DNA of 64,000 nucleotides from an uncultured Gemmatimonadales bacterium. Its GTDB lineage: Bacteria; Gemmatimonadota; Gemmatimonadetes; Longimicrobiales; RSA9. The translations under genes and the position numbers were made by a program. A model generated the notes under the pieces. It was not told the origin of the DNA. It was given only the letters and a program-made list of their open reading frames with translations, and did no database searches. Location: NCBI GenBank assembly GCA_963708135.1, contig OY970192.1:1152001-1216000 (forward strand). Reading direction: 5' to 3'. Below, piece by piece: positions 5,806 to 64,000 of the stretch (position 1 is the stretch's first letter; every line of letters begins with the position of its first letter).

Positions 5806-6106
5806 CCGCCGCCGCAAGGAGTGCCGCCGCCAGGAGTGCCGCCGTAAGCAGCTGCCGCCGTAAGCAGTGCCGCCGTAAGCAGTGGCGCCGCCGTAGGTAG
5901 TGCCGCCGTAAGCAGTGCCGCCGTCGGTAGTGCCGCCGTAAGCAGTTGCCGCCGTAAGCAGTGCCGCCGTAAGCAGTGGCGCCGCCGTAAGTAGTGCCGC
6001 CGTAAGGAGTGCCGCCGTCGGTAGTGCCGCCGTAAGCAGTTGCCGCCGTCCGTAGTGCCGCCGTAAGCAGTTGCCGCCGCAAGAAGTGCCGCCGCCGTAA
6101 GCAGTG
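5806..6106 (-). repeat. degenerate 15-16-bp tandem array, right-type arm (GTGCCGCCGTAAGCA)
   Basis: Repeated gtgccgccgtaagca / gttgccgccgtaag units; CGGCAC core inverted relative to 5244-5433. Confidence 0.9.
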
Positions 6107-15026: not shown

Positions 15027-15217
15027 AGCGGCACTACATAAACCGGCACTACACAAACCGGCAACTGCTCAAACCGGCACTACACAAACCGGCACTGCAT
15101 AAACCGGCAACTACTCAAACCGGCACTACATAAACCGGCACTACACAAACCGGCAACTGCTCAAACCGGCACTACACAAACCGGCACTACGTGAACCGGC
15201 AACTGCTCGAGGCGGCA
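15018..15217 (+). repeat. solo tandem array (AAACCGGCACTACAC / AAACCGGCAACTGCTC), CGGCAC family
   Basis: About 12 units of 15-16 bp between the FabH-like and FabG-like genes. Confidence 0.9.
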
Positions 15218-18664: not shown

Positions 18665-19472
18665 AAGGACGGCGGACGGCGGCACGACGAACACCGGCAC
18701 GACCGACACCGGCACGACCGACACCGGCACGGCTGACGGCGGCACGACGAACACCGGCACGACCGACACCGGCACGACTGACGGCGGCACGACGAACACC
18801 GGCACGACCGACACCGGCACGACTGACGGCGGCACGACTGACGGCGGCACGACTGACGGCGGCACGACCGCCGGCGGCACGACCAGCCTCGGGGTGGGGA
18901 GGGCGGGGCCGGGCGCGAAGGGGTTGACCGTACTGGCCACGTTGGCATACATCCGCCGCACGGCCGGGGAGGAGCGGATGGAGGCGGTGCTCGGGCGGCT
19001 GCCCGAGAAGGCGCGGCGGGGGCTGAAGGGAATCGTCGCCACGGAGGAGGTGCCGTGGCAGGTGCTGTCGGGGCTGCTGCGGGCCGCCGATGCGGTGCTC
19101 GCGGCGGACGACCCGGGCTGGATCGAGGCGGCCGGTGCCTACGCGATCGAGTCGCTCGGGGTGGAGTACTACGGCGGGATACTGCGCAAGAAGAGCCCGC
19201 TCGAGTTTCTCATGCAGCCCGTCTCGCTCTTCCAGCTCTACTATCACCCCGGCAACATGGAGGTGGTCGAGGCCGGCACCGGCCTGGCCGTGCTGCGGCT
19301 GGTCGGCTTCGAGCACGGCAACGTCCTCTTCTGCCGCCGCCAGACGGGCGGCCTGCGCCGAGCGCTCGAGCTCGCGGGCGGCCGCCAGCCGACCGTCCGC
19401 CACGTTCGCTGCACCGAGGACGGCGACGGCTACTGCGAATGGGAGCTGCGCTGGGGAGAAGCGGGGGAGTAA
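18657..19472 (+). CDS. V4R-like small-ligand-binding protein with N-terminal pentapeptide repeats
   Basis: C-terminal C..G....ALEL.G...V.H..C...GD.YCEW pattern; start overlaps the hydrolase stop. Confidence 0.7.
   Translation: MVERTADGGTTNTGTTDTGTTDTGTADGGTTNTGTTDTGTTDGGTTNTGTTDTGTTDGGTTDGGTTDGGTTAGGTTSLGVGRAGPGAKGLTVLATLAYIRRTAGEERMEAVLGRLPEKARRGLKGIVATEEVPWQVLSGLLRAADAVLAADDPGWIEAAGAYAIESLGVEYYGGILRKKSPLEFLMQPVSLFQLYYHPGNMEVVEAGTGLAVLRLVGFEHGNVLFCRRQTGGLRRALELAGGRQPTVRHVRCTEDGDGYCEWELRWGEAGE
18670..18885 (+). repeat. 15-bp tandem array (CGGCAC core) in frame within CDS, encoding TTDGG/TTDTG/TTNTG
   Basis: About 14 units such as acgactgacggcggc and acgaccgacaccggc. Confidence 0.9.
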
Positions 19473-21603: not shown

Positions 21604-22098
21604 GCGCGACGGACTACGACCGACAGCGGCACGACCGACTACGGCGAACTGCGGCACCACCGACTGCGGCACCGCCGACCGCGGCACGACCACTACGGCG
21701 AACTGCGGCACGACTCGCTGCGGCACCGCGGACTGCGGCATGACGGACTGCGGCACCGCCGACTACGGCACGACGGACTACGACCGACAGCGGCACGACC
21801 GACTACGGCGACCTGCGGCACGACGCACTACGGCACCGCCGACTGCGGCACGACGGACTGCGGCACCGCCGACTGCGGCACGACGGACTGCGGCACCGCC
21901 GACTGCGGCACGACGGACTGCGGCACCGCCGACTACGGCACGACCAAATACGACCGACTGCGGCGAACTGCGGCACGACTCGCTGCGGCACCGCGGACTG
22001 CGGCACGACGGACTGCGGCACCGCCGACTACGGCACGACGGACTACGACCGACAGCGGCACGACCGATTACGGCGACCTGCGGCACGACTCGCTGCGG
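21604..22098 (+). repeat. long left-type CGGCAC tandem arm with higher-order repeats
   Basis: About 500 bp of gactgcggcacgacg / gactgcggcaccgcc units. Confidence 0.92.
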
Positions 22099-49731: not shown

Positions 49732-51813
49732 TCAGCCATCGCTTTCCGCGGCCGGCTCGCCCGTGGGCGGGCGCCGGCGTGCCGCGCGCGAGGCCGCGCG
49801 CGGCGCCGGCTGGAAGAGCAGCCACAGCCCGGCGCCGAGCGAGAGGAGCGCCGGCGGCAGCAGGTAGAGCCGCGGCGCGCCGCCGGGCGCCAGCAGGAAC
49901 GCGGCGACGCCGGGCCGCGCGGCAAGCAGGAGCAGCGCGGCGTTGTTCAGCAGGTGCATGAGCGAGCTGGTGAAGATCGAGCGCGTGCGCCAGACCACCG
50001 TGGCCAGCAGCAGGCCGACCCAGGCCGTGGGCAGGAAGCGGAACACCGTCTCGTAGGAGAGGTGGAAGGCGCCGAAGAGCAGCGCGTTCAGCAGCAAGGC
50101 CGTGACGGCCAGGCGGAAGCGGCGGCTGCCCGACAGCAGGATCCCGCGGAACACGACCTCCTCGCAGATGGCCGGCGTGACGGCGGTGGCGAGCAGCATG
50201 AGCAGCAGCTCGCGCCCGGACGTGGCGGTGAGCAACCCGGCCATCCCGCGCAGCAGCCCTTCCGGCAGCGCGATCACCAGCTTCTGCGCCCACGCCAGGT
50301 ACCAGCCGAGCGGCAGCCCGCCCGCCATCACGAGGAGGCCGGCGAGGAGCTCGCGCGGTGCGGGCCGGCGCAGCGCCAGCGTCGCCTTCGGGTCGTAGCC
50401 GCCCAGGAACACGAACGCCAGCGCCGGCAGGAACAGGAGCAGCCACTCCGCCAGCATGGTTCCGCGCAGGGCCGCCGCGGCCGAGGGGCCGGAGACGAAC
50501 GTGCGCCCCACGTAGAAGTAGAGCGCCGCCACGAGCGCCACGAACGCCACCGCCTCGCCGGCGCGCGGCAGCCGCCCGCCGTGCGCGCCGAACGAGCCGA
50601 GGAGCGCCCCTAGCCGGCGCGGCGAGGCGCGGTGCTCGTCCGAGCCGAACAGCACCTCCTCGCTGCCGAACCCGCGCGCCGCGAAGAGCAGCGCCAGCAC
50701 GGCATAGAGCGTGGTGGTGGCCACCGCGATCACGGCCAGCCCGGGGTCCGCCTGCCCCGCCAGCAGCTCCCGGATCAGCAGCGCGATTCCCGCCACGGGC
50801 ACCGCGGCGAGCGCCGGCGTCATGGCGATCCCGGGGATCCCCGGCAGCATCGCGGGCAGCACGGCCAGCGTGTAGATCGGCGTGAGCACGTTCTGCGCTT
50901 CCTTGAGGGAGCGCGCGCGTGTGGCCAGGCCGAGGAACACGCCGGCGAAGAGGATCGCCACGGGCGCGAGCGTCGCCAGGATCAGCGCCGTCGTCTGCCA
51001 GTCGAGCACGCCGCCGAAGCCGCCCTGGCCCGCGATCCCGGCCAGCCCCGCGTTCAGCGTCAGGTAGATGCTGCCCACGTTCAGCACCGCCGCGAAGATC
51101 CCCATGATCGCCACCGTGGCGAACTTGCCGGCCACGATCTGCCACGCGGGCACGGGCGCCGTGACGAGCGCCTCCAGCGTGCCGCGCTCCTTCTCCCCGG
51201 CGGCCAGGTCGATGGCGGGGTAGAACGTCCCCAGCATGGTGACGAGCACGAGCAGCACCGGCAGGAATCGCCCGAGCGTGAAGCCCGCCGCCTCGAGCGG
51301 CTTCGCCACCGACTCGCTGGTCCGCTCCACCGGCCGGGCCAGCCCCGGCGGGAGCCCGCGCGCCTCCAGGCGCTGGCGCACCAGCGCCGCGCCGTAGTCG
51401 TCGAGCGCCTTGCGGACCTTGCCGAGCGCGAGCTCCGAGGCGCCGCTCCGCTCGTCGTAGAAGAGCTTCACTCTCAGCGTGAGCCCGCTGTCCGCCGGCT
51501 CCGCGCGCACGAGCAGGTCGACCGTGCCCCGCCGCACGGCCGCCTCGCTCATCCCCGGCGGCGCGTCCACCACGCGCACGTGGTCGAGCCCGCGCACGCT
51601 CGCGCCCAGCTCCGCCGGCAGCGCGCCCTGCACCGCCACCGTCGTCGTCCGCGACGCCATGTCCGCCGCGCCCACGAACAGCACCTGCTCCACCAGCACG
51701 AACATCGCCGGATAGAGCAGGATCGGGATCCCGACCATCACGAAGATCGTGCGCCGGTCCCGGACCGTCTCCCGGACCTCCTTCTTCAGGATCGCCCACC
51801 ACGCGCGGCTCAT
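49732..51813 (-). CDS. natB: NatB-like ABC-2 permease fused to a CPBP (CAAX/Abi) intramembrane metalloprotease domain
   Basis: KKEVRETVRDRRT, AGEKERGTLEAL, PAICEEVVFRG, FGAFH, HLLNN. Confidence 0.85.
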   Translation of the reverse strand: MSRAWWAILKKEVRETVRDRRTIFVMVGIPILLYPAMFVLVEQVLFVGAADMASRTTTVAVQGALPAELGASVRGLDHVRVVDAPPGMSEAAVRRGTVDLLVRAEPADSGLTLRVKLFYDERSGASELALGKVRKALDDYGAALVRQRLEARGLPPGLARPVERTSESVAKPLEAAGFTLGRFLPVLLVLVTMLGTFYPAIDLAAGEKERGTLEALVTAPVPAWQIVAGKFATVAIMGIFAAVLNVGSIYLTLNAGLAGIAGQGGFGGVLDWQTTALILATLAPVAILFAGVFLGLATRARSLKEAQNVLTPIYTLAVLPAMLPGIPGIAMTPALAAVPVAGIALLIRELLAGQADPGLAVIAVATTTLYAVLALLFAARGFGSEEVLFGSDEHRASPRRLGALLGSFGAHGGRLPRAGEAVAFVALVAALYFYVGRTFVSGPSAAAALRGTMLAEWLLLFLPALAFVFLGGYDPKATLALRRPAPRELLAGLLVMAGGLPLGWYLAWAQKLVIALPEGLLRGMAGLLTATSGRELLLMLLATAVTPAICEEVVFRGILLSGSRRFRLAVTALLLNALLFGAFHLSYETVFRFLPTAWVGLLLATVVWRTRSIFTSSLMHLLNNAALLLLAARPGVAAFLLAPGGAPRLYLLPPALLSLGAGLWLLFQPAPRAASRAARRRPPTGEPAAESDG

Positions 51814-52592
51814 GCGCGCGCCCCGGCGGTGGTGTGCCGGGTGATCAGGCGCAGGAACGCCCGGGCGAGGTTCGGTTGCTCGGTCTCCTCGAGCAGCGTC
51901 TCCAGGCTGCCCTCCGCCACCAGCCGCCCCTCCACGAGAATGCCGAGCCGCTCCGCCAGCAGCTCGGCACTCTCCATCTGGTGCGTCGAGAACAGCACCG
52001 CCTTCCCGCGCGCCTGCTCCTCGTAGATGAACGCGTGGATGCTCTCCGCGCTCACCACGTCCAGACCGTTCGTCGGCTCGTCCAGCACCACCACCGCAGG
52101 ATCGTGGATCACCGCCCGCGCGATCGCCACCCGCTGCCGCTGCCCCGTTGACAGCCGCCCGCAGTAGCGGCCCGCGAACTCCGTGATCCCGAAGCGCGCC
52201 ACCAGCTCGTCCACCCGCTCCGAGAGCCGTGCCCCGCCCAGCCCGTGCAGCTCGCCGAACAGCCGCAGAAACTCCACCGGCGTGTGCCGCTCGTAGAGCC
52301 CCATCGACGCCGACAGGAAGCCGATCCGCCGCCGCGCCTCCAGCGGCCGCTCCGCCACGTCCAGCCCCGCCACCCGCACCGTGCCCGCGCTCGGCGCCAG
52401 CAGTGTCGCCGCGCAGCGCAGCGCCGTCGTCTTCCCCGCGCCGTTCGGCCCCAGCAGCCCGTAGATCTCCCCCGACCGCACGGTCAGCGTGAGATCCCGG
52501 ACGGCCTCGGTTTCGCCGTACGATTTGCTGAGGTGATCGAACTCGATCAAGGCCGCTCCCGGGAGGCTCGCTCCTCCTGCTCTCAGCGACAT
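51810..52592 (-). CDS. natA: NatA-like ABC transporter ATP-binding protein (start may be TTG at 52550)
   Basis: GPNGAGKTT, LSTGQRQRV, LDEPTNGLD, STH. Confidence 0.88.
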   Translation of the reverse strand: MSLRAGGASLPGAALIEFDHLSKSYGETEAVRDLTLTVRSGEIYGLLGPNGAGKTTALRCAATLLAPSAGTVRVAGLDVAERPLEARRRIGFLSASMGLYERHTPVEFLRLFGELHGLGGARLSERVDELVARFGITEFAGRYCGRLSTGQRQRVAIARAVIHDPAVVVLDEPTNGLDVVSAESIHAFIYEEQARGKAVLFSTHQMESAELLAERLGILVEGRLVAEGSLETLLEETEQPNLARAFLRLITRHTTAGARA

Positions 52593-52608
52593 GAAGGGCG
52601 TCCCGGCG

Positions 52609-53760
52609 AAGGGCGTTCCACGCGGAGACGCCGGGGAGCGGAGTCATTGTAGCGGTTCACGATGCGTCCCGATCCTTTCCGAGCGTTGCGACCACGACCG
52701 GCCCTTCACACGACCGCACCTTCACCGTTTTCGAAGGGCGTTCCACGCGGAGACGCCGGGGAGCGGAGTCATTGTAGCGGTTCACGGTGCGTCCCGATCC
52801 CTTCCGAGCGTTGCGACCACGACCGGCCCTTCACACGACCGCCCCTTCACCGTTTTCGAAGGGCGTTCCACGCGGAGACGCTGGGGAGCGGAGTCATTGT
52901 AGCGGTTCATGATGCGTCCCGATCCTTTCCGAGCGTTGCGACCACGACCGGCCCTTCACACGACCGCACCTTCGCCGTTTTCGAAGGGCGTTCCACGCGG
53001 AGACGCCGGGGAGCGGAGTCATTGTAGCGGTTCACGGTGCGTCCCGATCCTTTCCGAGCGTTGCGACCACGACCGGCCCTTCACACGACCGCACCTTCAC
53101 CGTTTTCGAAGGGCGTTCCACGCGGAGACGCCGGGGAGCGGAGTCATTGTAGCGGTTCACGATGCGTCCCGATCCCTTCATGAGCGTTGCGGCCACGACC
53201 GGCCCTTCACACGACCGCCCCTTCACCGTTTTCGAAGGGCGTTCCACGCGGAGACGCTGGGGAGCGGAGTCATTGTAGCGGTTCACGATGCGTCCCGATC
53301 CCTTCATGAGCGTTGCGGCCACGACCGGCCCTTCACCGTTCGAAGGGCGTTCCACGCGGAGACGCCGGGGAGCGGAGTCATTGTAGCGGTTCACGATGCG
53401 TCCCGATCCCTTCATGAGCGTTGCGGCCACGACCGGCCCTTCACCGTTTTCGAAGGGCGTTCCACGCGGAGACGCCGGGGAGCGGAGTCATTGTAGCGGT
53501 TCACGGTGCGTCCCGATCCCTTCATGAGCGTTGCGGCCACGACCGGCCCTTCACCGTTCGAAGGGCGTTCCACGCGGAGACGCCGGGAGCGGAGTCATTG
53601 TAGCCGCGCACCACGCGTCCCGATCCCTGTACGTGCGACCACGACCGGCCTTTCACCGTTCGAAGGGCGTTCCACGCGGAGACGCCGGGGAGCGGAGTCA
53701 TTGTAGCGGTTCACGATGCGTCTCGATCCCTGTATGAGCGTTGCGGCCACGACCGGCCAC
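52609..53760. repeat. tandem array of 10 units (102-126 bp), each a 28-bp motif plus a copy of the GxxExxY gene 3' end
   Basis: TTCCACGCGGAGACG begins at 52616, 52741, 52866, 52991, 53116, 53242, 53350, 53460, 53568, 53670. Confidence 0.95.
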
Positions 53761-53764
53761 TCCA

Positions 53765-54337
53765 CTAAGCGGACCCAGGCGGAGCGCCTCCTGGAAGCGG
53801 GTCCCTGTGTTCTCCGCTCCCGCTGCGTCTCCGCGTGGAACGCGGCCGACCCGGCCGACCCGGCTGACCCGGCTGACCCGGCTGACCCGGCTGACCCGGC
53901 TGACCCGGCTGACCCGGCTGACCCGGCCCTTCCACGCCGAGAGGCCGAGGAGCGGAGTCCACGTAGCCGTTCACGACGCGCTTGAATCCCTGCATGAGCG
54001 TTGCTCCGCCGAAATTGATCAACAGCCCCAGACGCAGGTCCAGGAGCCTCAGGTAGGTCAGGACCTGCTTCCAGTGCACCGGCGCGAGGCGGTCCACCGA
54101 CTTGATCTCGACCACGACAACCCCTTCGACCAGCAGGTCCAGGCGGAAGGCCTCTTCGAAGCGGATCCCCTCCAGCTCGAGTGGGATCCGCTTCTGGCGC
54201 TCGACGTGGAGCCCGCGCCGCTCGAGGTCCCTCTTGAGGAGGGCCTCGTAAACCGATTCGAGCAGCCCCGGTCCATAGCGACGATGCACGCCAATGGCGG
54301 AATCGAGGATCTCGCCCGACACAAAATCCAGGTCCAT
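53765..54337 (-). CDS. GxxExxY protein (PD-(D/E)XK nuclease superfamily)
   Basis: GPGLLESVYE, FRLDLLVEGVVVVEIKSV, QVLTYL, GLLINFG; ORF reads through the flanking repeat. Confidence 0.93.
   Translation of the reverse strand: MDLDFVSGEILDSAIGVHRRYGPGLLESVYEALLKRDLERRGLHVERQKRIPLELEGIRFEEAFRLDLLVEGVVVVEIKSVDRLAPVHWKQVLTYLRLLDLRLGLLINFGGATLMQGFKRVVNGYVDSAPRPLGVEGPGQPGQPGQPGQPGQPGQPGQPGRPGRPRSTRRRSGSGEHRDPLPGGAPPGSA
53842..53928. repeat. 9-bp microsatellite (CCCGGCTGA)n, read as (PGQ)n at the GxxExxY C-terminus
   Basis: About 9 copies of cccggc(t/c)ga. Confidence 0.9.
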
Positions 54338-54373
54338 GCCGCGTTCTCCGCTCCCCCGCGTCTCCGCGTGGAA
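53930..54373. mobile_element. putative 444-bp GxxExxY unit bounded by 28-bp inverted repeats
   Basis: TTCCACGCCGAGAGGCCGAGGAGCGGAG at 53930 and CTCCGCTCCCCCGCGTCTCCGCGTGGAA at 54346-54373. Confidence 0.55.
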
Positions 54374-56052
54374 CGCTGCCGATCCGTCCGGGGCGCAGGA
54401 ATAGACGGATGCGCCGGAGCTGGTCGTCCACGCGCGCGCCGAACGTCAGTCTGGGCCGCTCCCGGCAGGCTCGCGCCCTGCAGAACAGTCGGGTGCGGCC
54501 TCCTGCGGCAGCGTTGCCGTCTCCCTCCGGGGCAGGGCTCCGTTCGCCCACCCCGGTATCCGCGGGCCGTTTCACGCAGAGACGCCGGGGAGCGGAGTCA
54601 TCGTAGCGGTTCACGATGCGCCCCGATCCCTGTACGAGCGTTGCGGCCACGACCGGCCTTTCACCGTTTTCGAAGGGCGTTCCACGCGGAGACGCCGGGG
54701 AGCGGAGTTGTTGGAGCCGCGCACCACGCGTCCCGATCCCTTCATGAGCGTTGCTCCGCCGGCGCGAGGCAGCCGGAAGACCTCTTCGAAGCGGACCCTA
54801 TCCAGCTCGAGTGGGATCCGCCTCTGGCCCTCGACGTGGAGCCCGCGCCGCTCGGCCAGGTCCATGCCGCGTGCTCCGCTCCCCCGCGTCTCCGCGTGGA
54901 ACGCTGCCGATCCGTCCGGGGCGCAGGAATAGACGGATGCGCCGGAGCTGGTCGTCCACGCGCGCGCCGAACGTCAGTCTGGGCCGCTCCCGGCAGGCTC
55001 GCGCCCTGCAGAACAGTCGGGTGCGGCCTCCTGCGGCAGCGTTGCCGTCTCCCTCCGGGGCAGGGCTCCGTTCGCCCACCCCGGTATCCGCGGGCCGTTT
55101 CACGCAGAGACGCCGGGGAGCGGAGTCATCGTAGCGGTTCACGATGCGCCCCGATCCCTGTACGAGCGTTGCGGCCACGACCGGCCTTTCACCGTTTTCG
55201 AAGGGCGTTCCACGCGGAGACGCCGGGGAGCGGAGTTGTTGGAGCCGCGCACCACGCGTCCCGATCCCTTCATGAGCGTTCCGGCCACGACCGGCCATTC
55301 CGCTAAGCGGACGCAGGCGGAGCGCCTCCTGGAAGCGGGTCCCTGTGTGCTCCGCTCCCGCTGCGTCTCCGCGTGGAACGCGGCCGACCCGGCCGACCCG
55401 GCCCTTCCACGCCGAGACGCCGGGGAGCGGAGTCCTCGTAGCGGTTCACCACACGCGCTCGAACCCTCCATGAGCGTTGCTCCGCCGGCGCGAGGCAGGC
55501 GGAAGACCTCTTCGAAGCGGATCCCGTCCAGCTCGGGTGGGATCCGCCTCTGGCGCTCGACGTGGAGCCCGCGCCGCTCGGCCAGGTCCATGCCGCGTTC
55601 TCCGCTCCCCCGCGTCTCCGCGTGGAACGCTGCCGATCCGTCCGGGGCGCAGGAATAGGCGGATGCGCCGGAGCTGGCCGCGGGCCCTTCCACGCCGAGA
55701 CGCCGGGGAGCGGAGTCCTCGTAGCGGTTCACCACACGCGCTCGAACCCTCCATGAGCGTTGCTCCGCCGGCGCGAGGCAGGCGGAAGACCTCTTCGAAG
55801 CGGACCCTATCCAGCTCGAGTGGGATCCGCCTCTGGCGCTCGACGTGGAGCCCGCGCCGCTCGTCCAGGTCCATGCCGCGTTCTCCGCTCCCCCGCGTCT
55901 CCGCGTGGAACGCTGCCGATCCGGCGGAAGACCTCTTCGAAGCGGATCCCGTCCAGCTCGAGTGGGGTCCGCATCTGGCCCTCGACGTGGAGCCCGCGCC
56001 GCTCGGCCAGGTCCACGCCGCGTTCTCCGCTCCCCCGCGTCTCCGCGTGGAA
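54374..56052. repeat. mosaic of internally deleted GxxExxY mini-copies (54680-54901, 55405-55627, 55688-55910, partial ~55924-56052), 3'-end units and a 528-bp-period duplication
   Basis: Mini-ORFs MDL(A/D)ERRGLHVE..FEEVFRLPRAGGATLM; ccaggtccatgccgcg recurs 528 bp apart. Confidence 0.9.
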
Positions 56053-56082
56053 CGCCGCCGATCCGTCCGGCGGAGCGTCCCT

Positions 56083-56641: not shown

Positions 56642-56747
56642 GTTACAGCCGGGCTGTAACATTTTAGCGGGTTTCAACCTCCGCGCCGTTGCGCGACCGT
56701 TGCGCCACAACGATTTCGGCCGCTCAACCCCATGGCACGCGTCTTGT
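56642..56747 (+). promoter_or_regulatory. putative sigma54 promoter with upstream palindromes
   Basis: GTTACAGCC-G-GGCTGTAAC (56642-56660), CGTTGCGCCACAACG (56698-56712), TGGCACG-CGTC-TTGT (56733-56747). Confidence 0.55.
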
Positions 56748-56839
56748 CTCCGGAAGCGCCGCCTGTCGTGCGCCCGTGGGCCCCGTGCCGTGGCCCGGGG
56801 ACGATGCGCCATCTCCACCGACGTAACAGGGAGTTCCGC

Positions 56840-59044
56840 ATGATCGCGAGCCGTCGTTGGTTCGTTGCCCGGGGACGCGCCGTGCTCGGCTTCTCGCTCG
56901 GTCTCGGCCTCGTCATCGTGCTCGGCAGCTGCCAGGCCGACACGCTCTACCAGGCCGGCACTCCGAACGTCCAGCCGCCCACCATCGTCATCACCTCCCC
57001 CGCCACCGGCGCCGCCGTCCAGGCCGGGCACACCGTGCCCGTCCGCATGGTGGCCACCGACGCGGCGGGCGTCTCGCAGATCGTGCTCACCGTCTCCGGC
57101 GCGCTCCAGCAGACGATCGTGAAGAGCTACTCCCCGCCACGCGACTCCGTCGTGCTCGACACCGTCGTCGTCGTGCCGGCGGGCACCTCAGGCAACGTCC
57201 AGCTGCGCGCCCGCGCCGTGAACGCCGGCGGCGCCAGCGCCGAGTACGGCCCCGTCGCGCTCGCGGTCAGCTCGACCGACGTGATCGCGCCCACCGTGAC
57301 CATGACCTTCGGCTCGATGCCGCGCATGGAGCTGACGGACAGCTTCACGGTCCAGGTCCACGGCACCGACAACCCCGGCGGCAGCGGCGTGGCCAAGCTC
57401 GGCTACACGGCCATCGTCACGAATCCGCGGCTCGGGCAGACGCAGGCGTTCACCGACAGCGTCGTGCTGGCGCGGCCGGTGGCGGACACCACGGTCCGCT
57501 TCGCGCTCGCGCCGCCGCTCGTGGATGCCCTCGACCTGCCGGACTCGCTGCGCGTGGAGATGCACGCGTTCGCGGTGGACAGCGCCGGGCTCTGCACGGG
57601 CGCCGTGGACGCCAGCGGCACGCCGACCGTCGGCTGCGACGTGGCGACGATCGGCGGCAGGCAGGTGCGGGTGGCGGCCCGCGTCGGCGCGAAGGCCGAC
57701 GTGCTCGTGGTGGCCGGCCGGACCTCGGCCGTCCCCGGCGGCGGCTCGATCCCCGACCTGCTCGTGGACAACGCGCGCGCCCGGGTCTACGTCTCCAACT
57801 TCAGCCGCAACCTCGTGCAGGTGCTCGGCGCCGCGACCGGCGCCTGGCAGAGCGACGTCCAGGTCGGCTCCGAGCCCTGGGGGCTCGCCTGGAACGCCAA
57901 CCACGACAGCGTCTTCGTGGCCAACTCGGGCGGCACCAACCTTTCCGTGCTGTCCGTGTCCGGCACCCCGAAGGAGGACGTGGCGCGCCGCTTCTACACG
58001 CCCGACGCGCCGCTCTTCCAGATCAGCTCCAGCACCGGCGGCGGGGCCGTGCGCCTGTCCGGCACCTTCATCGAGCTGAGCGACCGGCCCCAGTACATCG
58101 CCGAGGACGCCGCCGGGCGGCTGCTCTACTCGACGCAGCCCACGCCCAGCGCCTCCGACGGCACCATCCGCGTCGTCACGCGCCAGCCGGGCTGGCCGAA
58201 GTCCGAGTCGCGCCTGCTCGTCCGCAGCCAGGACATCGTGTACGCCCAGAACTCGACCGCCATCGCGCACGTGGACAGCATCCAGCTCTACACCAACACC
58301 GGCGGCGACGACGCCATCCAGATCTGGGACCACCAGCCCGGCTTCCCGGGCACCATCATCGCCAGCGGCATCCAGAGCCTGCCGAACGCCATTGCCTACA
58401 TGGAGGCGCACGGCTCCGACATCCTCTGGGGCCAGGGCACCTGGTCGCTCAAGGACGTCGCCTTCGCCGACACCACGTTCGTGGCCGCCTCCGCCGACCG
58501 GAAGTGGCTCGCCTTTGGCGCCGGCGCCACCGCGCCCGCCGGCCGCATCGTGCTGTGGAGCTCCGACGCCGCCGCCATCAGCAGCAACGTCCCGGTCACC
58601 GACCTCGTCGCCAACGCCTCCGAGCGCGTGCAGGGCCTCGACCTCAACTCCGACGGCACCCTCGGCGCCGCCCGCTCCGACGTGGCCGCCTACTTCTTCA
58701 CCCGCGACCTCCGCCTCCAGGGCAGCTTCGCCGACGGCCTCGGCACCGGCGCGGGCGGCATCGCCATCGACCCCGGCCACCCCTCCTTCTACGAGGGGGT
58801 GCTGTCGAACCAGAACACGCTCGCCTTCGTCGGCACCGGCAACCACACGATCCGGATCATCGACACCATCCACTTCAACACCCGCGGCGAGATCGCCATC
58901 CGCGACAACATCGTCGGGCGGCTCGAGGCCGCACCGCGCCTCCCGGGCGACCCCGCGGACGTGGTGCTCAAGCTCTATGGCGTGACCAGCTCGGACGGCA
59001 TCCTCGTCCTCGATGTCCACAGCGGCGACATCACGAGCTTCTGA
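56840..59044 (+). CDS. large lipoprotein with Ig-like domains and a YVTN-like beta-propeller
   Basis: Lipobox LGSC, PTIVITSP Ig-like starts, RVYVSN / VGSEPWGL / VFVANSG propeller blades. Confidence 0.78.
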   Translation: MIASRRWFVARGRAVLGFSLGLGLVIVLGSCQADTLYQAGTPNVQPPTIVITSPATGAAVQAGHTVPVRMVATDAAGVSQIVLTVSGALQQTIVKSYSPPRDSVVLDTVVVVPAGTSGNVQLRARAVNAGGASAEYGPVALAVSSTDVIAPTVTMTFGSMPRMELTDSFTVQVHGTDNPGGSGVAKLGYTAIVTNPRLGQTQAFTDSVVLARPVADTTVRFALAPPLVDALDLPDSLRVEMHAFAVDSAGLCTGAVDASGTPTVGCDVATIGGRQVRVAARVGAKADVLVVAGRTSAVPGGGSIPDLLVDNARARVYVSNFSRNLVQVLGAATGAWQSDVQVGSEPWGLAWNANHDSVFVANSGGTNLSVLSVSGTPKEDVARRFYTPDAPLFQISSSTGGGAVRLSGTFIELSDRPQYIAEDAAGRLLYSTQPTPSASDGTIRVVTRQPGWPKSESRLLVRSQDIVYAQNSTAIAHVDSIQLYTNTGGDDAIQIWDHQPGFPGTIIASGIQSLPNAIAYMEAHGSDILWGQGTWSLKDVAFADTTFVAASADRKWLAFGAGATAPAGRIVLWSSDAAAISSNVPVTDLVANASERVQGLDLNSDGTLGAARSDVAAYFFTRDLRLQGSFADGLGTGAGGIAIDPGHPSFYEGVLSNQNTLAFVGTGNHTIRIIDTIHFNTRGEIAIRDNIVGRLEAAPRLPGDPADVVLKLYGVTSSDGILVLDVHSGDITSF

Positions 59045-59115
59045 CGATTCCGGCGTCCATTCCGCGGGGCCGGCGCAGGCGCGCCGCCCCCGCGCACACC
59101 CCTGGAGGCATTGGC

Positions 59116-59796
59116 ATGCGTGCTCTCTCTCGCGCTGCACTCGCTCTGCTACTCGTGGCCGCGGCCACGCCGGCGCTGGCGCAGGACTACGGCGCCTCCG
59201 CCGGCTGGTACGCCGCCGCGCTCCACGCCACCAGCATGAACAGCGGCGCGGCCGGCACCGCCATCAATCCCGGCTGGGGCTGGGCGGGCGGCGCGTACTA
59301 CGAGAAATGGCTCGGCTCCGGGCGCGTGGCCTACCGCTTCGACGGCTCGGTCGGGCGCCAGCAGATCCCATGGAACGGGCAGGACCGCAACGTCAACACC
59401 TGGCTCGGCGACTTCGGCCTCGAGCTCCGGCTGCTGCCCGCCGCCCCCGGCCGCTCCGTGAGCCCCTTCCTGAGCGCCGGCCCGGGCGTCGTGGTCTACG
59501 ACCTCGGCCGTGGCCTGCCCGTCACCGACGAGGCGGCGAACGCGCTCTATCAGGGCCGCCAGAAGGCCCTCTTCGCGCCCAACTTCGGCGGCGGCTTCGA
59601 CATCATCACCCCCTGGACCGTGGACTTCAACAACATCGTCGTCCGGCTCCAGGCCGATGACTACGTGGTGCTCAAGTCCCCGTTCCAGCCGATCTCCGGG
59701 TCCGATTTCGGCCTCGTGCACCAGCTCCGCTTCGCGATCGGGCTGCACGCCGGCATGGGCACGCTCGGCGGCGCCTCCGCCCAGCGCGTCCGCTAG
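59116..59796 (+). CDS. outer-membrane beta-barrel-like protein
   Basis: GGAGG RBS, signal peptide ALAQ, alternating aromatic strands (SPFLSAGPG, NFGGGFD). Confidence 0.7.
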   Translation: MRALSRAALALLLVAAATPALAQDYGASAGWYAAALHATSMNSGAAGTAINPGWGWAGGAYYEKWLGSGRVAYRFDGSVGRQQIPWNGQDRNVNTWLGDFGLELRLLPAAPGRSVSPFLSAGPGVVVYDLGRGLPVTDEAANALYQGRQKALFAPNFGGGFDIITPWTVDFNNIVVRLQADDYVVLKSPFQPISGSDFGLVHQLRFAIGLHAGMGTLGGASAQRVR

Positions 59797-59798
59797 GC

Positions 59799-59927
59799 TG
59801 TAACGATGCATTACACCGTCTCCCGCACGGATCGTTACACCGCGGCCTTCCGGCCGGTGGGCGGATTGATGGAAGTCGTTGTGGCACAACGATTCACGTT
59901 TGGCGACAACGGTGGCCCGGCACTTGA
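59799..59927 (+). promoter_or_regulatory. putative sigma54 promoter of the flp/tad operon
   Basis: TGTAA-CGATGCA-TTACA (59799-59815), CGTTGTGGCACAACG (59877-59891), TGGCCCG-GCAC-TTGA (59913-59927). Confidence 0.55.
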
Positions 59928-60045
59928 CTCTACCCGGGTTCGGTCAGCGGGGCGCGTCACCCCTGATGGTTTCCCGTTTCCGGGCTGCCTCTGCAGCCCC
60001 GGCGCTTTCCAACCCAGGCCCTCGTGGCCGGAAAGGAGCACTCCA

Positions 60046-60231
60046 ATGCTGGAGCTGTGGAAGAGTTTCTGGACGGACCAGTCCGGGCAGGACCTGTCCG
60101 AGTACGCGCTTCTGCTCGTGCTGATCGCCGCCGCGCTGGTGACGATCATCATCGCGCTGCAGAACGAGATCAAGAGCGCGTTCAGCCGCGTCACGAGCGC
60201 GCTGTCCTCCGGTAACACGGCAGGCAGCTGA
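60046..60231 (+). CDS. flp: Flp/Fap pilin
   Basis: AAGGAG RBS, G|QDLSEYALL cleavage/EY motif, hydrophobic helix, 61 aa. Confidence 0.93.
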   Translation: MLELWKSFWTDQSGQDLSEYALLLVLIAAALVTIIIALQNEIKSAFSRVTSALSSGNTAGS

Positions 60232-60243
60232 CGGTGGGCACGT

Positions 60244-60271
60244 CGCGGGCGGCCCGCACGGGGCCGCCCGC
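60244..60271 (+). terminator. GC-rich hairpin after flp (terminator or mRNA stabiliser)
   Basis: Perfect IR CGCGGGCGGCCCG-CA-CGGGCCGCCCGCG; no strong U tract. Confidence 0.5.
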
Positions 60272-60337
60272 GGGTGCTTCCCATGGGAGGCCGCCCCGAG
60301 GGGCGGTCGTCATGACGTTCTGGAAAGGGAGATCCGG

Positions 60338-60859
60338 GTGAGAGGCGAGGTCGAGTTCTGGGCGCTGCTGTTCCCGGTCCTGACCGCTGCGGCGGTCTGG
60401 GACTGGCGTGCGCGCGTGATCCCGAACTGGCTGACGCTCTCCGCCCTGCTGGTCGCGCTCGGGCTGGCGGCCCTCCCCGGCGGGATCGACCTCGTGGCCT
60501 CGCTCGAGGGAGCCGCGCTGGGGCTCGGCTTCGGCTTCGTGCTCTTCGTCCTCGGCGCGCTCGGCGGCGGTGACGCCAAGCTGTTCGCGGCCGTGGGCGC
60601 GTTCCTCGGCCCGCTATCGTTCCTCTATGCGCTGCTGGCGGTGATCCTGGTCGGCGGAGCCATGGCCCTGGTGGCGGTGGTGCGCAAGGGCGCGCTGCGG
60701 GCCACGCTCGGCAACATGGGCCTGATCGTCCTGAGCCTGGTGACCTTCGGCCTGGCCGGCCGGCGGGTCACCCTGAGCTCGGAGGGAGCGATCGCCGTGC
60801 CCTACGGCATCGCGATCGCCATCGGGACCGTCATCGCCCACGTCTGGGGGCTCGCATGA
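60338..60859 (+). CDS. cpaA: prepilin peptidase A24 (CpaA/TadV)
   Basis: WDWRARVIPNWL, LGGGDAKL, VPYGIAI. Confidence 0.92.
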   Translation: MRGEVEFWALLFPVLTAAAVWDWRARVIPNWLTLSALLVALGLAALPGGIDLVASLEGAALGLGFGFVLFVLGALGGGDAKLFAAVGAFLGPLSFLYALLAVILVGGAMALVAVVRKGALRATLGNMGLIVLSLVTFGLAGRRVTLSSEGAIAVPYGIAIAIGTVIAHVWGLA

Positions 60860-61281
60860 GACGGATCGCAAGCCGATGCGGATGGACGCCCCGGCCCCGC
60901 GGCGGACAGGCGCTCGTGGAGTTCGCCTTCGTGCTGCCGATCCTGCTCCTGCTGATCCTCGGCATCTTCGAGTTCGGGCGCGCCTACAATGCGTACGAGG
61001 TGGTCACCGACGTCGCCCGCGAGGCAGCGCGCCGCGCGGTAGTGGACGACACCTCGAGCACCGCCACGATCCGGGGCGTGGCCGTCGCCGACCTCGACCG
61101 CGCCGGGCTCGCCGCGGCCGACAGCATGGTCACGGTCAGCGATCCGAACACGGCGGGGGCGACCACCACCGTGACGATCCAGTACCCGTTCAAGTTCCTG
61201 TTCCTCGGGCCCATGCTCTCGTGGGCCACCGGACAGGATCAGGTCGTGCTCAGCAGCACCTGCGAAATGCGGCACGAGTAG
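60856..61281 (+). CDS. tadE: TadE-like pseudopilin
   Basis: GQALVEFAFVLPILLLLILGIFEFG, AREAAR. Confidence 0.92.
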   Translation: MRRIASRCGWTPRPRGGQALVEFAFVLPILLLLILGIFEFGRAYNAYEVVTDVAREAARRAVVDDTSSTATIRGVAVADLDRAGLAAADSMVTVSDPNTAGATTTVTIQYPFKFLFLGPMLSWATGQDQVVLSSTCEMRHE

Positions 61282-61294
61282 CCAAGGAAGAGTC

Positions 61295-62128
61295 ATGAAC
61301 AAGAGACGGATGTGGATCGTCCTCGCGGTCGCGGCGCTGCTCGGCCTCGCCGCCGCGTTCCTGTCGGCGGACTACGTGCGCTCCTCGCGCACGCCGATCC
61401 TGCCGACCGCGGCGCCCAAGACGCAGGCCGTGGTGGCGGCGCGGGACCTTCCCGTCGGCGCCATCATCAAGCCGGAGGACGTGCGCCTGATCGACTGGCC
61501 CGGCGACCTGCTTCCCGCGGGCTTCGCCTCCAAGCCGGAGCAGGTGGTCGGGCGCGGCGTCATCACGGCCGTGGCGGCCAACGAGCCGCTGCTGCAGTCC
61601 AAGCTGGCGGACAAGGCGTCCGGCGGCGGGCTGCCGATCGTGATCCCCCCCGGGATGCGCGCCATGAGCGTGCGCGTGGACGAGGTGATCGGCGTGGCCG
61701 GCTACGTCGTCCCGGGCACCCGGGTGGACGTGATCCTCACGGTCAAGCCGCCGGGCCCGAACCAGCAGGAGCTCTCGCGCATCGTGCTGCAGAACGTGCG
61801 CGCGCTCGCCTCCGGGCAGATCATCGAGAAGGACCCCGAGGGCAAGCCGATCACCACGCGCGTGGTCACGCTCCAGCTCTCGCCGGAGGAGGCCGAGGCG
61901 CTCGCCCTCGCCTCCAACCAGGGCAAGATCCAGCTCGCGCTGCGCAACGGCCTGGACATGGACTCCGTGAGCACGCCCGGCGTGCAGCTGGCCAATCTCG
62001 TCTCGGGCGCCGTCATGCGGCCCGTGCGGCGTTCCGGGGGCCGGCGCACCACCTCCACCGAGGTGGCGCGCGAGAGCAACGCGGTCGAGGTTTACAAGGG
62101 CGGGCAGCGGACGCTGAAGAAGTTCTAG
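61295..62128 (+). CDS. cpaB: Flp pilus assembly protein CpaB/RcpC
   Basis: SAF domain VVAARDLPVG, GMRAMSVRVD, PGTRVDVIL, LALRN. Confidence 0.94.
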   Translation: MNKRRMWIVLAVAALLGLAAAFLSADYVRSSRTPILPTAAPKTQAVVAARDLPVGAIIKPEDVRLIDWPGDLLPAGFASKPEQVVGRGVITAVAANEPLLQSKLADKASGGGLPIVIPPGMRAMSVRVDEVIGVAGYVVPGTRVDVILTVKPPGPNQQELSRIVLQNVRALASGQIIEKDPEGKPITTRVVTLQLSPEEAEALALASNQGKIQLALRNGLDMDSVSTPGVQLANLVSGAVMRPVRRSGGRRTTSTEVARESNAVEVYKGGQRTLKKF

Positions 62129-62155
62129 CTCAGACACTCAGCTTGGGGGCTCTCC

Positions 62156-63451
62156 ATGGCGAGATCGGCGCGGATGCCGGTTCTTACGCTGCTGTGCACG
62201 CTGGCCGTGACGGGTGCGGCGGCGGCGCAGCAGGTTCTCACCCAGCCGGAGCGGGTGATCACGATCCCGAAGGGGAAGTCCGCGCTGGTCGTCGAGCGCA
62301 ACCCCGTCGAGCGCGTCTCGGTGGCGGATGACAAGATCGCGGACCCGATCCCGGTCTCGCCCACGGAGGTGCTCATCAACGGCAAGGACATCGGGATCAC
62401 CAGCGTGATCGTCTGGTCCAAGACCGGCGGCGTGAGCCTCTACAGCGTGGAGGTGACGGCCGACCCCGAGATCATCAAGCGGCAGATCGAGATGCTCGGC
62501 CCCGACGTGCACATCGACGTCGCGGCCAGCGGCAACACGGTCATCCTCTCCGGCACCGTGGCGCGGCCGACCCTCGCCCGGCGCGCCATCGACATCGCGC
62601 GCGCCAGCGGCGCCAAGACCGTGATCAACAACATCCACGGGCCCTCCGCCTCGCAGGTGCTGCTGAAGGTCCGCTTCGCGGAGATCACCCGCACCGGCTC
62701 GGAGAGCTTCGCCTCCCAGCTCAACGCGCTCAACATCCACGAGCTGCGGCCGGGCGGCCGGGGCACCGACTGGACGACGGAGACCTTCTCCGACGGCCTC
62801 GTGCACCTGTTCCTGTCCGGCGACAACACCTCCTTCGAGGCGATCATCAACGCGCTCCGCAAGAAGGGCGAGTTCCGCGAGCTGGCCGAGCCGACGCTGC
62901 TCGCCCTCGACGGCGACTCCGCCTCCTTCCTGGCCGGCGGCGAGTTCCCCTTCCCGGTCCTTCAGGGCGGCGGGGCCAGCAATGCCGTCACCATCCAGTG
63001 GCGCGAGTTCGGCGTGCGCCTGAACTTCCGCCCCTTCATCACCGATGGCGGCGGCATCCGGCTGCACCTCTCGCCCGAGGTCTCCTCGCTCGACTTCGCC
63101 AACGGCCTCGTGCTGAACGGCTTCCGGATCCCGACCATCCAGACGCGCCGCGCGGAGACCACCGTGGAGCTCCAGGCGGGGCAGCACCTCGCCATCGCGG
63201 GGCTGCTCGACAACAGCCTGACCACGAACGGGACCAAGATCCCGCTGCTCGGCGACCTGCCGATCATCGGCACCTTCTTCCGCTCCAGCGCGAACGACCA
63301 GTCGCGGCGCGAGCTGCTCGTCGTCATCACGCCCGAGATCGTCGAGCCGAGCACCACCATGCCGCCCATGCCGACGGGCGAGCCCTCGACGTGGAAGTGG
63401 CTGCGCGGGCTGCGGCCGCAGGACCTGCCGCAGAACCCCGGTGCCCGGTGA
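62156..63451 (+). CDS. cpaC: Flp pilus secretin CpaC/RcpA
   Basis: QVLLKVRFAE, ASFLAGGEFP, IPLLGDLPIIGTFFRS, ELLVVITP. Confidence 0.94.
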   Translation: MARSARMPVLTLLCTLAVTGAAAAQQVLTQPERVITIPKGKSALVVERNPVERVSVADDKIADPIPVSPTEVLINGKDIGITSVIVWSKTGGVSLYSVEVTADPEIIKRQIEMLGPDVHIDVAASGNTVILSGTVARPTLARRAIDIARASGAKTVINNIHGPSASQVLLKVRFAEITRTGSESFASQLNALNIHELRPGGRGTDWTTETFSDGLVHLFLSGDNTSFEAIINALRKKGEFRELAEPTLLALDGDSASFLAGGEFPFPVLQGGGASNAVTIQWREFGVRLNFRPFITDGGGIRLHLSPEVSSLDFANGLVLNGFRIPTIQTRRAETTVELQAGQHLAIAGLLDNSLTTNGTKIPLLGDLPIIGTFFRSSANDQSRRELLVVITPEIVEPSTTMPPMPTGEPSTWKWLRGLRPQDLPQNPGAR

Positions 63452-63503
63452 AGGGGGAGCACCTGATGCCAGCAATGCAGCGCGCCTCCGGGGAGGAGAG
63501 CGA

Positions 63504-64000
63504 ATGAGCGACCGCCTCATCCGGCTCGGCCTGCTCGTGGAGGACGACTCGATCCACCGGGCCGTGGGCGCGGTGGAGCCCGCGCCCGGCTACGCCCTCG
63601 AGGTGGTGCGGGAGGTCGGCTTCGACCGCCTGCCGTCCATCCAGGCGGCCGCCGGCGAGTTCGCAACCGCCCGCGTGGACATCGCCTTCGTGGACCTCTC
63701 GGCGGACCCGCAGAAGGGCCTCGAGTTCGCCCGCGACCTCGCCGACCTCGACCCCACGATCCTGATCCTGGCCACCGGCCCGGAGCTGCCGCCCGAGCTG
63801 CTGCTGCTCGCCATGCGCGCCGGCATCTCCGAGTACCTGCTCAAGCCCGTCGAGCCCGAGGATGTGGCGGCCGCCCTCGGCCGCCTCTCTCGCCGGCTCG
63901 CCGCGGCCAAGGAGCCCGAAGCCGCGGTGCCCAGCAAGGTGATCGGCTTCCTGCCCGTGAAGGGCGGCACCGGCACCACCACGGCCGCCGTCAACCTGGC
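63504..64000 (+). CDS. cpaE: CpaE/TadZ pilus assembly protein (receiver-like plus MinD-like ATPase), truncated by window end
   Basis: Own translation: MSDRLIRLG..AMRAGISEYLLKP..KVIGFLPVKGGTGTTTAAVNL. Confidence 0.88.
   Translation, partial: MSDRLIRLGLLVEDDSIHRAVGAVEPAPGYALEVVREVGFDRLPSIQAAAGEFATARVDIAFVDLSADPQKGLEFARDLADLDPTILILATGPELPPELLLLAMRAGISEYLLKPVEPEDVAAALGRLSRRLAAAKEPEAAVPSKVIGFLPVKGGTGTTTAAVNL

Follow-up and report, generated by a model that had tools for sequence, protein, structure and literature searches.

A predicted nuclease gene of the GxxExxY family with matching inverted arms, set in an array of its own ends

Introduction

The closest published parallel to the locus described here is the Ssn/NTS system, in which SsnA, a GIY-YIG nuclease, was shown to cut single-stranded DNA beside its repeats (PMC11893778), while RAYT/REP systems (REPtrons and TIRtrons; PMC3333891, PMC3733652, PMC5581495) provide the model of dispersal followed by local amplification. 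We analysed a 64,000-nucleotide stretch (the window) of the genome of an uncultured Gemmatimonadales bacterium (assembly GCA_963708135.1, contig OY970192.1, positions 1,152,001 to 1,216,000), which carries a gene of the GxxExxY family framed by inverted repeat arms and set within an array of partial copies of itself. An earlier reading of the window from its letters alone (the sequence-only reading) had compared gene and motif to RAYT/REP; the comparison is apt as logic, with Ssn/NTS (PMC11893778) the closer parallel.

The GxxExxY locus shares with Ssn/NTS a tiny single-domain nuclease, a repeat–gene–repeat layout, many lineage-specific pairs of repeat and protein, and dispersed gene-less repeats (PMC11893778). 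It differs in fold, since Pfam and NCBIfam assign the protein to PD-(D/E)XK/GxxExxY alone and not to GIY-YIG; in its arms, which are runs of a heptamer that pair mainly with the opposite arm, whereas NTS are self-contained hairpins; and in that cleavage has been shown for SsnA and is predicted from sequence for GxxExxY. With RAYT/REP it shares a gene that is bordered by repeats and does not duplicate within its genome, and repeats that are dispersed and locally amplified in tandem together with flanking DNA (PMC3333891, PMC3733652, PMC5581495). In contrast to RAYTs, the GxxExxY protein has no HUH/Y1 domain and therefore no covalent strand-transfer chemistry; its arms carry no GTAG tag and number in the tens, not hundreds; its deleted derivatives (minis) retain pieces of the gene; and the cassette does not follow the host tree, as RAYTs mostly do within a genus (PMC5581495). 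Insertion sequences (IS) with their miniature inverted-repeat transposable elements (MITEs) likewise have terminal inverted repeats and internally deleted derivatives, whereas here we find no recognised transposase, no target duplication and no recent full within-genome copies, and the family is nearly absent from plasmids. PF13366 is listed as of unknown function with multiple transfers (PMC3424549), and GxxExxY is mentioned in connection with Cas4 annotation (10.1101/2021.01.26.428298). Our literature search, mostly of open-access text and with the supplementary gene lists of PMC11893778 and PMC3733652 outside its scope, returned no description of an arm–gene GxxExxY cassette, which thus appears to be undescribed so far.

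Results

Matching inverted arms frame GxxExxY genes across bacteria

The functional unit is a cassette of ~450 bp consisting of an inward-facing arm, a GxxExxY gene and a second arm. In the window, the intact gene (53765..54337, minus strand; 190 amino acids (aa), nuclease domain at residues 8-122) lies between a 3′ arm at 53929..53957 (plus strand), which overlaps the reading frame, and a 5′ arm at 54345..54376 (minus strand), 8 bp before the ATG. Full flanks were available for 78 of the 80 related loci, which come from many phyla; at an arm score of at least 30, inverted arms frame the gene in 54/78, compared with 1/396 shifted controls; for SsnA, 42% of homologues are flanked on both sides (PMC11893778). 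A locus's 5′ arm had its own 3′ arm as best match in 29 and among the top five in 55 loci of this set. Narrower search windows detected arms in 46/78 of these loci and in 128/205 over all sets (our window included), and a like framing test on the small open reading frames (ORFs) of the host genome, with a crude gene model, passed 49/1960. The proposal of the sequence-only reading that gene and motif form a unit is thus borne out by arms in 54/78 relatives across phyla versus 49/1960 small ORFs, and also by the empty and deleted alleles, lateral movement, dispersed minis and catalytic residues conserved under purifying selection that are described below.

The arms are runs of a heptamer at ~9-bp spacing. 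From 205 loci, 190 were stop-free and 130 had runs on both sides, a set that excludes the window because its own irregular arm failed the heptamer pattern. The 5′ and 3′ heptamers agree in 91/130 loci (shuffled mean 16.8, maximum 29) and, among Sphingomonas, in 23/30 loci (shuffled mean 9.0). Judged from these sequences, arms vary between cassettes and match within one, indicating that the two arms of a cassette change together. Folding of single arms of the window gave z -3.1 for the 5′ arm, z +1.0 for the 3′ arm and z ~ +1 for the tandem units of the array, whereas pairing occurs mainly with the opposite arm of the cassette: the motif is one arm of an inverted pair and not a reliable palindrome by itself.

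The family is very large, with at least 7404 of 8000 candidates scored passing E 1e-20. In an order-level survey 25/41 genomes hold it, with 0-11 matches each. The window's own arm pattern occurs at ≤3 mismatches in 3/60 family genomes and, as an exact pattern, in none of the metagenome contigs searched.

The GxxExxY protein is a predicted nuclease with a conserved active site

The protein matches TIGR04256 over residues 8-122 (E 6e-37; 126.5 bits against a cut-off of 35) and PF13366, PDDEXK_3 (124.5 bits against a cut-off of 22). Its putative catalytic residues are E27, D67, E77-x-K79 and Q91-xxx-Y95, an E...D...ExK plus QxxxY pattern that we take to be of the RecB/Cas4 type. Among 88 non-redundant proteins, E27, E77, K79, Y95 and N108 are invariant (88/88), D67 and H18 are present in 87/88 and Q91 in 86/88, and dN/dS values of 0.035-0.137 across 12 close pairs indicate purifying selection; fabG dN values were set aside, as several pairs lacked codon alignment. 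The predicted structure (predicted local distance difference test score, pLDDT, 90.8) has Cas4 SSO0001 (PDB 4ic1) as its top Foldseek match (E 5.8e-3), and a wider structural search returned middling scores to many PD-(D/E)XK proteins, the best being 3ijm (Z 8.2, root-mean-square deviation (rmsd) 3.4 over 101 residues), with Cas4 SSO0001 at Z 7.3 and rmsd 4.9 over 102 residues. A sequence search of solved structures gave no meaningful match. By its predicted core and conserved residues the protein is a member of the PD-(D/E)XK superfamily and a predicted nuclease; this agrees with the fold named by the sequence-only reading for a family (PF13366) that is listed as unknown in PMC3424549.

The protein resembles Cas4/RecB in giving SSO0001 (PDB 4ic1) as best Foldseek match and in its E...D...ExK and QxxxY motifs, and differs in having no CRISPR context at the array and in scoring as well against other PD-(D/E)XK proteins (3ijm, Z 8.2). 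Cas4 is defined by a four-cysteine iron–sulfur (Fe-S) cluster; residues 1-131 of the GxxExxY protein hold no cysteine and therefore no Fe-S cluster, unlike Cas4. TnsA- or Rpn-like transposases were not among the listed fold matches, and may still be related. A homodimer prediction scored 0.00 and gives no verdict.

A scan of all alignment columns yielded one lead, and no more than a lead, for direct recognition of the arms by the protein: residue 7 appears to covary with base 5 of the heptamer, threonine going with G in 32/32 cases and alanine, valine or phenylalanine with A in 16/16. A second candidate, covariation of heptamer base 2 with residues 90, 110 and 122, was dropped, being gone or weak in independent pairs.

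Cassettes are exchanged sideways at the Sphingomonas fabD-fabG junction

A common downstream gene recurred in 9 of the first 80 loci; from their translations, we take the genes at this shared Sphingomonas junction to be fabG behind fabD. We examined 151 Sphingomonas genomes (including the unpublished G189, which enters the denominator only), of which 61 gave a single full-length match. The best 30 of these 61 full-match loci all hold the cassette at fabD-fabG. A further 40 junctions, picked (not at random) from the 88 other matched genomes, comprise 29 empty junctions with gaps of 9-40 bp, 4 deleted minis keeping both ends, 5 with an unrelated CGTC-type hairpin, 1 with another insert and 1 in which fabD is not adjacent. 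The hairpins are of two kinds (L156/L157/L159 and L158/L160), the second of which resembles the published NTS consensus; such NTS-like hairpins at the same junction (2/40 loci) are a further likeness to Ssn/NTS, and unrelated repeat systems seem to compete for the junction.

Full, empty and deleted states are interspersed on the flank tree. Within the 30 full loci, 7/12 supported cassette splits conflict with the flank tree, cassette and flank identities are uncorrelated (rho -0.02), and close hosts with 92-93% identical flanks carry cassettes just 71-75% identical. On the cassette tree arm type switches twice, compared with seven switches on the flank tree, and clade tests reject cassette groups on flank data and a host group on cassette data (approximately unbiased test, p-AU ≤ 0.001; groups named after the first trees were seen). 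The interspersed alleles together with the tree conflict indicate lateral movement of the cassette into a single site. Close hosts of one clade have the last ~7 fabD codons following the cassette type and the spacer before fabG staying with the host; a co-conversion window test over the 30 loci was noisy, and gave a negative value (partial rho -0.14) for the 45 bp of fabD nearest the junction.

This movement leaves few of the marks of an ordinary IS. We found no target-site duplication at 4/5 sites (the array, the intact cassette and two of three minis in the host genome), the fifth being flanked by a longer direct repeat that does not adjoin the arms, and none was evident at fabD-fabG. Among 20 copies in three genomes, 0/66 within-genome pairs reach 90% identity (maximum 68%). 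Plasmid matches number 3/72,556 and phage matches 0/50,697, in collections where the host groups are thinly sampled. The cassette is not an ordinary IS.

The array consists of the ends and deleted copies of one cassette

The array spans 52607..56071 (3.46 kb) and holds 24 arm-motif anchors from 52619 to 56049, 17 forward and 7 reverse, exactly matching the approximate hand count and split of the sequence-only reading. Of these anchors, 21 lie within ≤3 mismatches of the 28-mer of the first copy. At ≤6 mismatches this 28-mer has 27 matches genome-wide, 21 of them inside the array, and no match elsewhere in the 64-kb window; a reversed-pattern control gave 0 matches genome-wide. Also upheld, from the sequence-only reading, were its single intact gene bracketed by the inverted motif (a TIGR04256/PF13366 match with arms on both sides), its 3′-end fragments and deleted mini-copies, into which the array resolves together with duplicated flank, and its lack of a nearby mobility gene: Pfam searches of 17 long ORFs (~42.6-63.5 kb, part of the window's ORFs) found no transposase, integrase or reverse transcriptase. 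A genome-wide search (97.65% completeness) for the Y1 transposase family PF01797 was likewise without a match, and on that ground a RAYT acting in trans was rejected.

By comparison with the intact cassette, we resolved the array into nine tandem units plus two further ones, five minis (two of type B and three of type A), a half mini and copies of the outer 5′ flank. The nine head-to-tail units (52607..53660, plus strand; 102-126 bp each, with a Tandem Repeats Finder (TRF) period of 125) each consist of a 3′ arm, ~50-75 bp of gene 3′ end and a linker, and their 3′ ends are 77-85% identical to that of the intact gene. Unit 9 (53571) is a mosaic of variants from the right side of the gene. Mini B1 (53661..53845) follows, with a 3′ arm (53673, forward), a 3′-end fragment, a short diverged internal fragment and a 5′ arm (53837, reverse). 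Between it and the intact cassette lies a 9-bp microsatellite spacer (53846..53927, ~9 copies), of which a sister segment at 55384-55399 has 2 copies. The GxxExxY ORF has no stop ahead of the 3′ arm, its frame continuing through the arm into this microsatellite, which encodes PGQ repeats in the ORF tail.

Beyond the gene, an outer 5′ flank (54377..54564, minus strand) has been duplicated together with the arm. A 528-bp tandem duplication (54328..55383) holds flank, one unit and one mini per copy, the first 300 bp being identical between copies. Mini A1 (54675..54904) retains both arms and the gene segment 54140-54224; mini B2 (55203..55383) is the sister of B1; mini A2 (55400..55630) has the same context as the intact gene, namely a B mini, the spacer and the same arm variant, and its two arms form a stem (z = -4.4); and mini A3 (55683..55913) is near-identical to A2. 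The array ends on the right with a half mini (55921..56071) made of an internal fragment, a 5′ arm (56049, reverse) and the start of the outer flank. Every A mini has kept both arms and is missing three internal pieces (~70, 50 and 102 bp); in what remains of the interior these minis are 89-93% identical to the gene, and because almost none of the differences are synonymous we regard them as dead copies of the resident gene. The gene segment retained in the A minis contains a perfect 12-bp inverted repeat (window 54153-54189).

That mini A2 shares the intact gene's context points to duplication of the cassette plus flanks, followed by deletion, and the 528-bp duplication, identical over its first 300 bp, together with the mosaic unit 53571 indicates recent recombination among units. 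Among the arm copies, the one on the 3′ side of the intact gene has diverged most (3 mismatches), and the translation of the 3′-end units is nearer to the closest database relative, P0001, than the intact gene is; from these comparisons the 3′ arm of the intact gene is judged to be a derived version. Automatic alignment of the mini deletion junctions gave exact microhomology of just 0-3 bp, so that we claim no microhomology mechanism. An Rfam search returned one chance-level match, outside the array.

A short motif 30-90 bp outside the 5′ arm (54376-54420) is common to three different cassettes and copied with the minis; it recurs beside the cassette of a second genome of the same family, G012 (L112 1920-1975), and beside a second intact gene of the host genome (G000:C1 3137460-3137480, G000:C1 being the host contig). 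It is possibly the promoter of the GxxExxY gene. A sigma-70 promoter scan of the outer 5′ flank found no consensus match.

Assembled copy number is supported by sequencing depth

Run X1, which may be the source sample, contains the array stretch, and its 8 listed contigs, from 60 records, match it with 0-1 differences. Depth per assembled copy is 2.8-6.0, and depth follows the 31-mer multiplicity of the assembly (r = 0.97), which bears out the number of copies, though not the order of the units. No RNA run was among the listed sequencing runs that contain the stretch, which carries no information about expression. An artefact of assembly or sequencing would fit a single-contig assembly in which no read-derived (X1) piece spans the array and several bins have no contig listed, yet it is contradicted by the flat depth per assembled copy at r = 0.97, by the patterned substitutions and mosaics of the units and by the same architecture with other arms in G012, and we consider it extremely improbable. 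A joint in X1 also reproduces a separate mini at genome position 2,719,130.

Further copies and an unrelated repeat family in the host genome

The arm of this cassette occurs four more times outside the array, as three minis (806.8 kb, G000:C1 806752-806845; 2,719.1 kb and 4,950.6 kb, both with a gene fragment) and one solo arm (1,786.3 kb). The first of these minis lies directly behind the stop of a glmS-like gene, presumably glmS judging by its C-terminus and so the usual Tn7 attachment region, and a direct repeat of ~30 bp, 17 bp of it exact and itself hairpin-like, surrounds the mini at 2,719,130 (G000:C1 2719056-2719356). The genome has a second intact GxxExxY gene at 3,137.6 kb, 50% identical and with its own, different arms, and a GxxExxY remnant at 3,909.8 kb. 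Generic arm patterns applied genome-wide are too loose in 72% GC DNA (pattern P3 gave 42 matches outside the array against 37 in the control), so arm-like repeats are not totalled over the genome. Inverted arms of other heptamer types also form pairs that enclose no gene, 90-300 bp long and some nested, at G000:C1 1849744-1849978, 2739074-2739369, 3982290-3982380 and 4422820-4422920.

An unrelated octamer-armed repeat family is present in 124 copies (control 0), including four tandem arrays of 6, 6, 7 and 11 units (arrays at G000:C1 3232050-3235600, 539821-541466, 3128550-3129972 and 4709237-4710757, not listed in order of unit number). The 11-unit array adjoins a four-helix-bundle gene (TIGR02436) framed by the same octamer arms, and the other three arrays have no such gene alongside. 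By its sequence layout, the pair of octamer repeat and four-helix-bundle gene looks like a parallel gene-plus-arm system; we know of no nuclease domain in the four-helix-bundle family. The mutS gene is present and intact, and on the evidence of this gene loss of mismatch repair was rejected as a cause of the arrays, there being no obvious repair defect.

Smaller arrays are found at other loci of the family. In G012 an independent array, with an arm sequence of its own, places the intact gene between two minis and adds tandem arms, and two further loci (L265 and L241) have tandem arm arrays, in the form of arm pairs. In repeated bases, the window (2245) is followed by a locus with 704.

Discussion

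A proposed mechanism and its alternatives

From the family-wide layout, the concerted arms, the conserved active site, the lateral exchange and the gene-less and deleted copies, all of them established by observation, we infer arm binding, cutting and a link between cutting and amplification. We somewhat favour a mechanism, drawn from these sequence comparisons, in which the protein recognises its arms and cuts beside them, and the host's repair of the breaks gives rise to cassette transfer, minis and arrays. The RecB/Cas4-type PD-(D/E)XK protein would recognise its own arms and nick or cut beside them, its substrate probably being single-stranded or stem-paired DNA, as for SsnA and RAYT; since it has neither ligase nor integrase chemistry, it would depend on host repair. 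Repair from another chromosome or from incoming DNA could then copy or swap the cassette at the same junction, interrupted repair could leave minis, and repeated breakage with unequal recombination among arms could build arrays. In the window, the resident cassette and its flanks would have been duplicated, one copy would have lost three internal pieces, and units would later have multiplied and been shuffled to leave 24 arms around one surviving gene. The evidence points to the gene-plus-arm package being a selfish DNA element. A bolder version, which we hold tentatively and think doubtful, makes it a mobile element reduced to the minimum, which has neither transposase nor integrase nor reverse transcriptase: a 120-residue RecB/Cas4-type nuclease would recognise the heptamer arms of its cassette, with a specificity open to retuning, and would draw on host repair to enter fixed operon junctions across bacterial phyla and to displace rival cassettes there time and again, dispersed repeat families and local arrays arising as by-products.

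Several observations weigh against the favoured mechanism. Arms fall short of the threshold in 24/78 relatives and are weak or missing around several copies in G004 and G018. Nor is the fold match specific, the best Z being 8.2. At residue 7, serine goes with either base (22 G, 12 A), and the residue 7–base 5 column was chosen after the all-column scan and has 4 independent pairs (p = 0.125). The 30-locus window test for co-conversion of flanks gave noisy values, negative close to the junction. The window, with 23 arms by script count, compares with at most 6 in 127 other loci, most of them from short-read assemblies, which may collapse arrays; large arrays (≥ 200 repeated bases) occur in 10/205 loci, the window included; and the same genome holds the octamer-armed arrays of 6, 6, 7 and 11 units. 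Since unrelated octamer arrays exist and GxxExxY arrays are rare, host recombination alone could explain the amplification, which may be a property of the host. Either host recombination is enough to amplify units bounded by such arms, or amplification is promoted by the protein of each family.

The leading alternative is a passive array, in which the arm–gene pairing is real, inverted arms stall replication forks or offer short homology, and slippage or unequal recombination by the host does the amplifying; the protein would restrict incoming single-stranded DNA as SsnA does, regulate itself or process transcript stems, and the cassette would spread by ordinary recombination in conserved flanking genes. 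The many unrelated tandem arrays of the genome (four from one octamer-armed family), the rarity of arrays at GxxExxY loci, the lowered integration of transforming DNA reported for SsnA (PMC11893778), and a mosaic unit (53571) and 528-bp duplication that need homologous recombination alone all suit it. By itself it leaves unexplained why arms change in step with the gene, how minis with both arms reach new sites and why hosts with 92-93% identical flanks carry 71-75% identical cassettes, and the intact mutS gives no obvious repair defect; we judge it unlikely, if a serious contender. A free-standing homing endonuclease would instead cut the empty junction and have the cassette copied in by double-strand-break repair, with arms serving regulation or self-protection and minis and arrays arising as aborted repair products. 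A single site with both occupied and empty alleles and lateral transfer, the ~7 fabD codons that travel with cassette type in one clade, the lack of target duplication and a coexistence of degenerate copies with purifying selection that fits a homing cycle are what such an enzyme would leave. Co-conversion is not seen across all 30 loci, however, close protein relatives sit at many unrelated sites, minis in the host genome occupy unrelated junctions and a single domain of 120 aa probably has little room for a long recognition site, all of which makes homing improbable. A classical IS with MITEs, its arms being terminal inverted repeats and GxxExxY being or recruiting a cut-and-paste transposase, could account for terminal repeats that face inward and contain 9-bp repeats, for deleted derivatives and for 0-11 matches per relative genome; the missing target duplication at the array, the intact cassette and two of three minis, with none evident at fabD-fabG, the 0/66 within-genome pairs at 90% (maximum 68%), and the 3/72,556 plasmids and 0/50,697 phages, as against 13-17% of IS200/IS110 genes on plasmids (PMC5581495), leave this reading largely disfavoured and in our estimate very improbable.

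Significance

The arms give the GxxExxY family a candidate substrate. If the protein cuts at them, PD-(D/E)XK would be the third fold paired with dispersed bacterial repeats, after HUH (RAYT) and GIY-YIG (Ssn), and a class of intergenic repeats that is widespread and built from heptamers would be accounted for. Culturable Sphingomonas, with lateral exchange at a fixed junction, make a tractable system, and small nucleases with naturally varied sequence preference could serve as tools, as argued for Ssn. The array illustrates how far such ends can amplify at one locus.

Genomic surroundings and other repeats

The host genome is a single contig of 5.45 Mb with 72% GC, and its nearest protein matches are from Gemmatimonadota, in line with a host of that phylum. 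The array lies between an ABC-transporter ATPase gene on its left (51810..52592, minus strand; PF00005) and a 109-aa ORF on its right that matches no known family, after which a Tad/Flp pilus cluster (56732-63994) encodes a Flp pilin, a prepilin peptidase, TadE, RcpC/CpaB and a secretin. The natA homologues of 14 relatives have other neighbours, and the site upstream of natA is not comparable among them. In two genomes of a sister family (L085 and L086), gene-less arm pairs of GxxExxY type lie upstream of a natA homologue, which may be chance if such arms are common there.

Other four-helix-bundle genes of the host have their own inverted low-complexity arms or lie beside a tandem array (G000:C1 5253485-5253892, 3277982-3278347 and 2722187-2723886). 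Short-period tandem repeats of another family occur within the window at 5807-6094, 15029-15208, 18695-18884 and 21813-22059 (G000:C1 1157807, 1167029, 1170695 and 1173813); a four-helix-bundle gene (G000:C1 1171681-1171989) lies near two of them. Elsewhere in the genome, CRISPR-like repeat–spacer arrays with periods of 61 and 72-73 are found at G000:C1 3648113-3651191 and 5133254-5140180.

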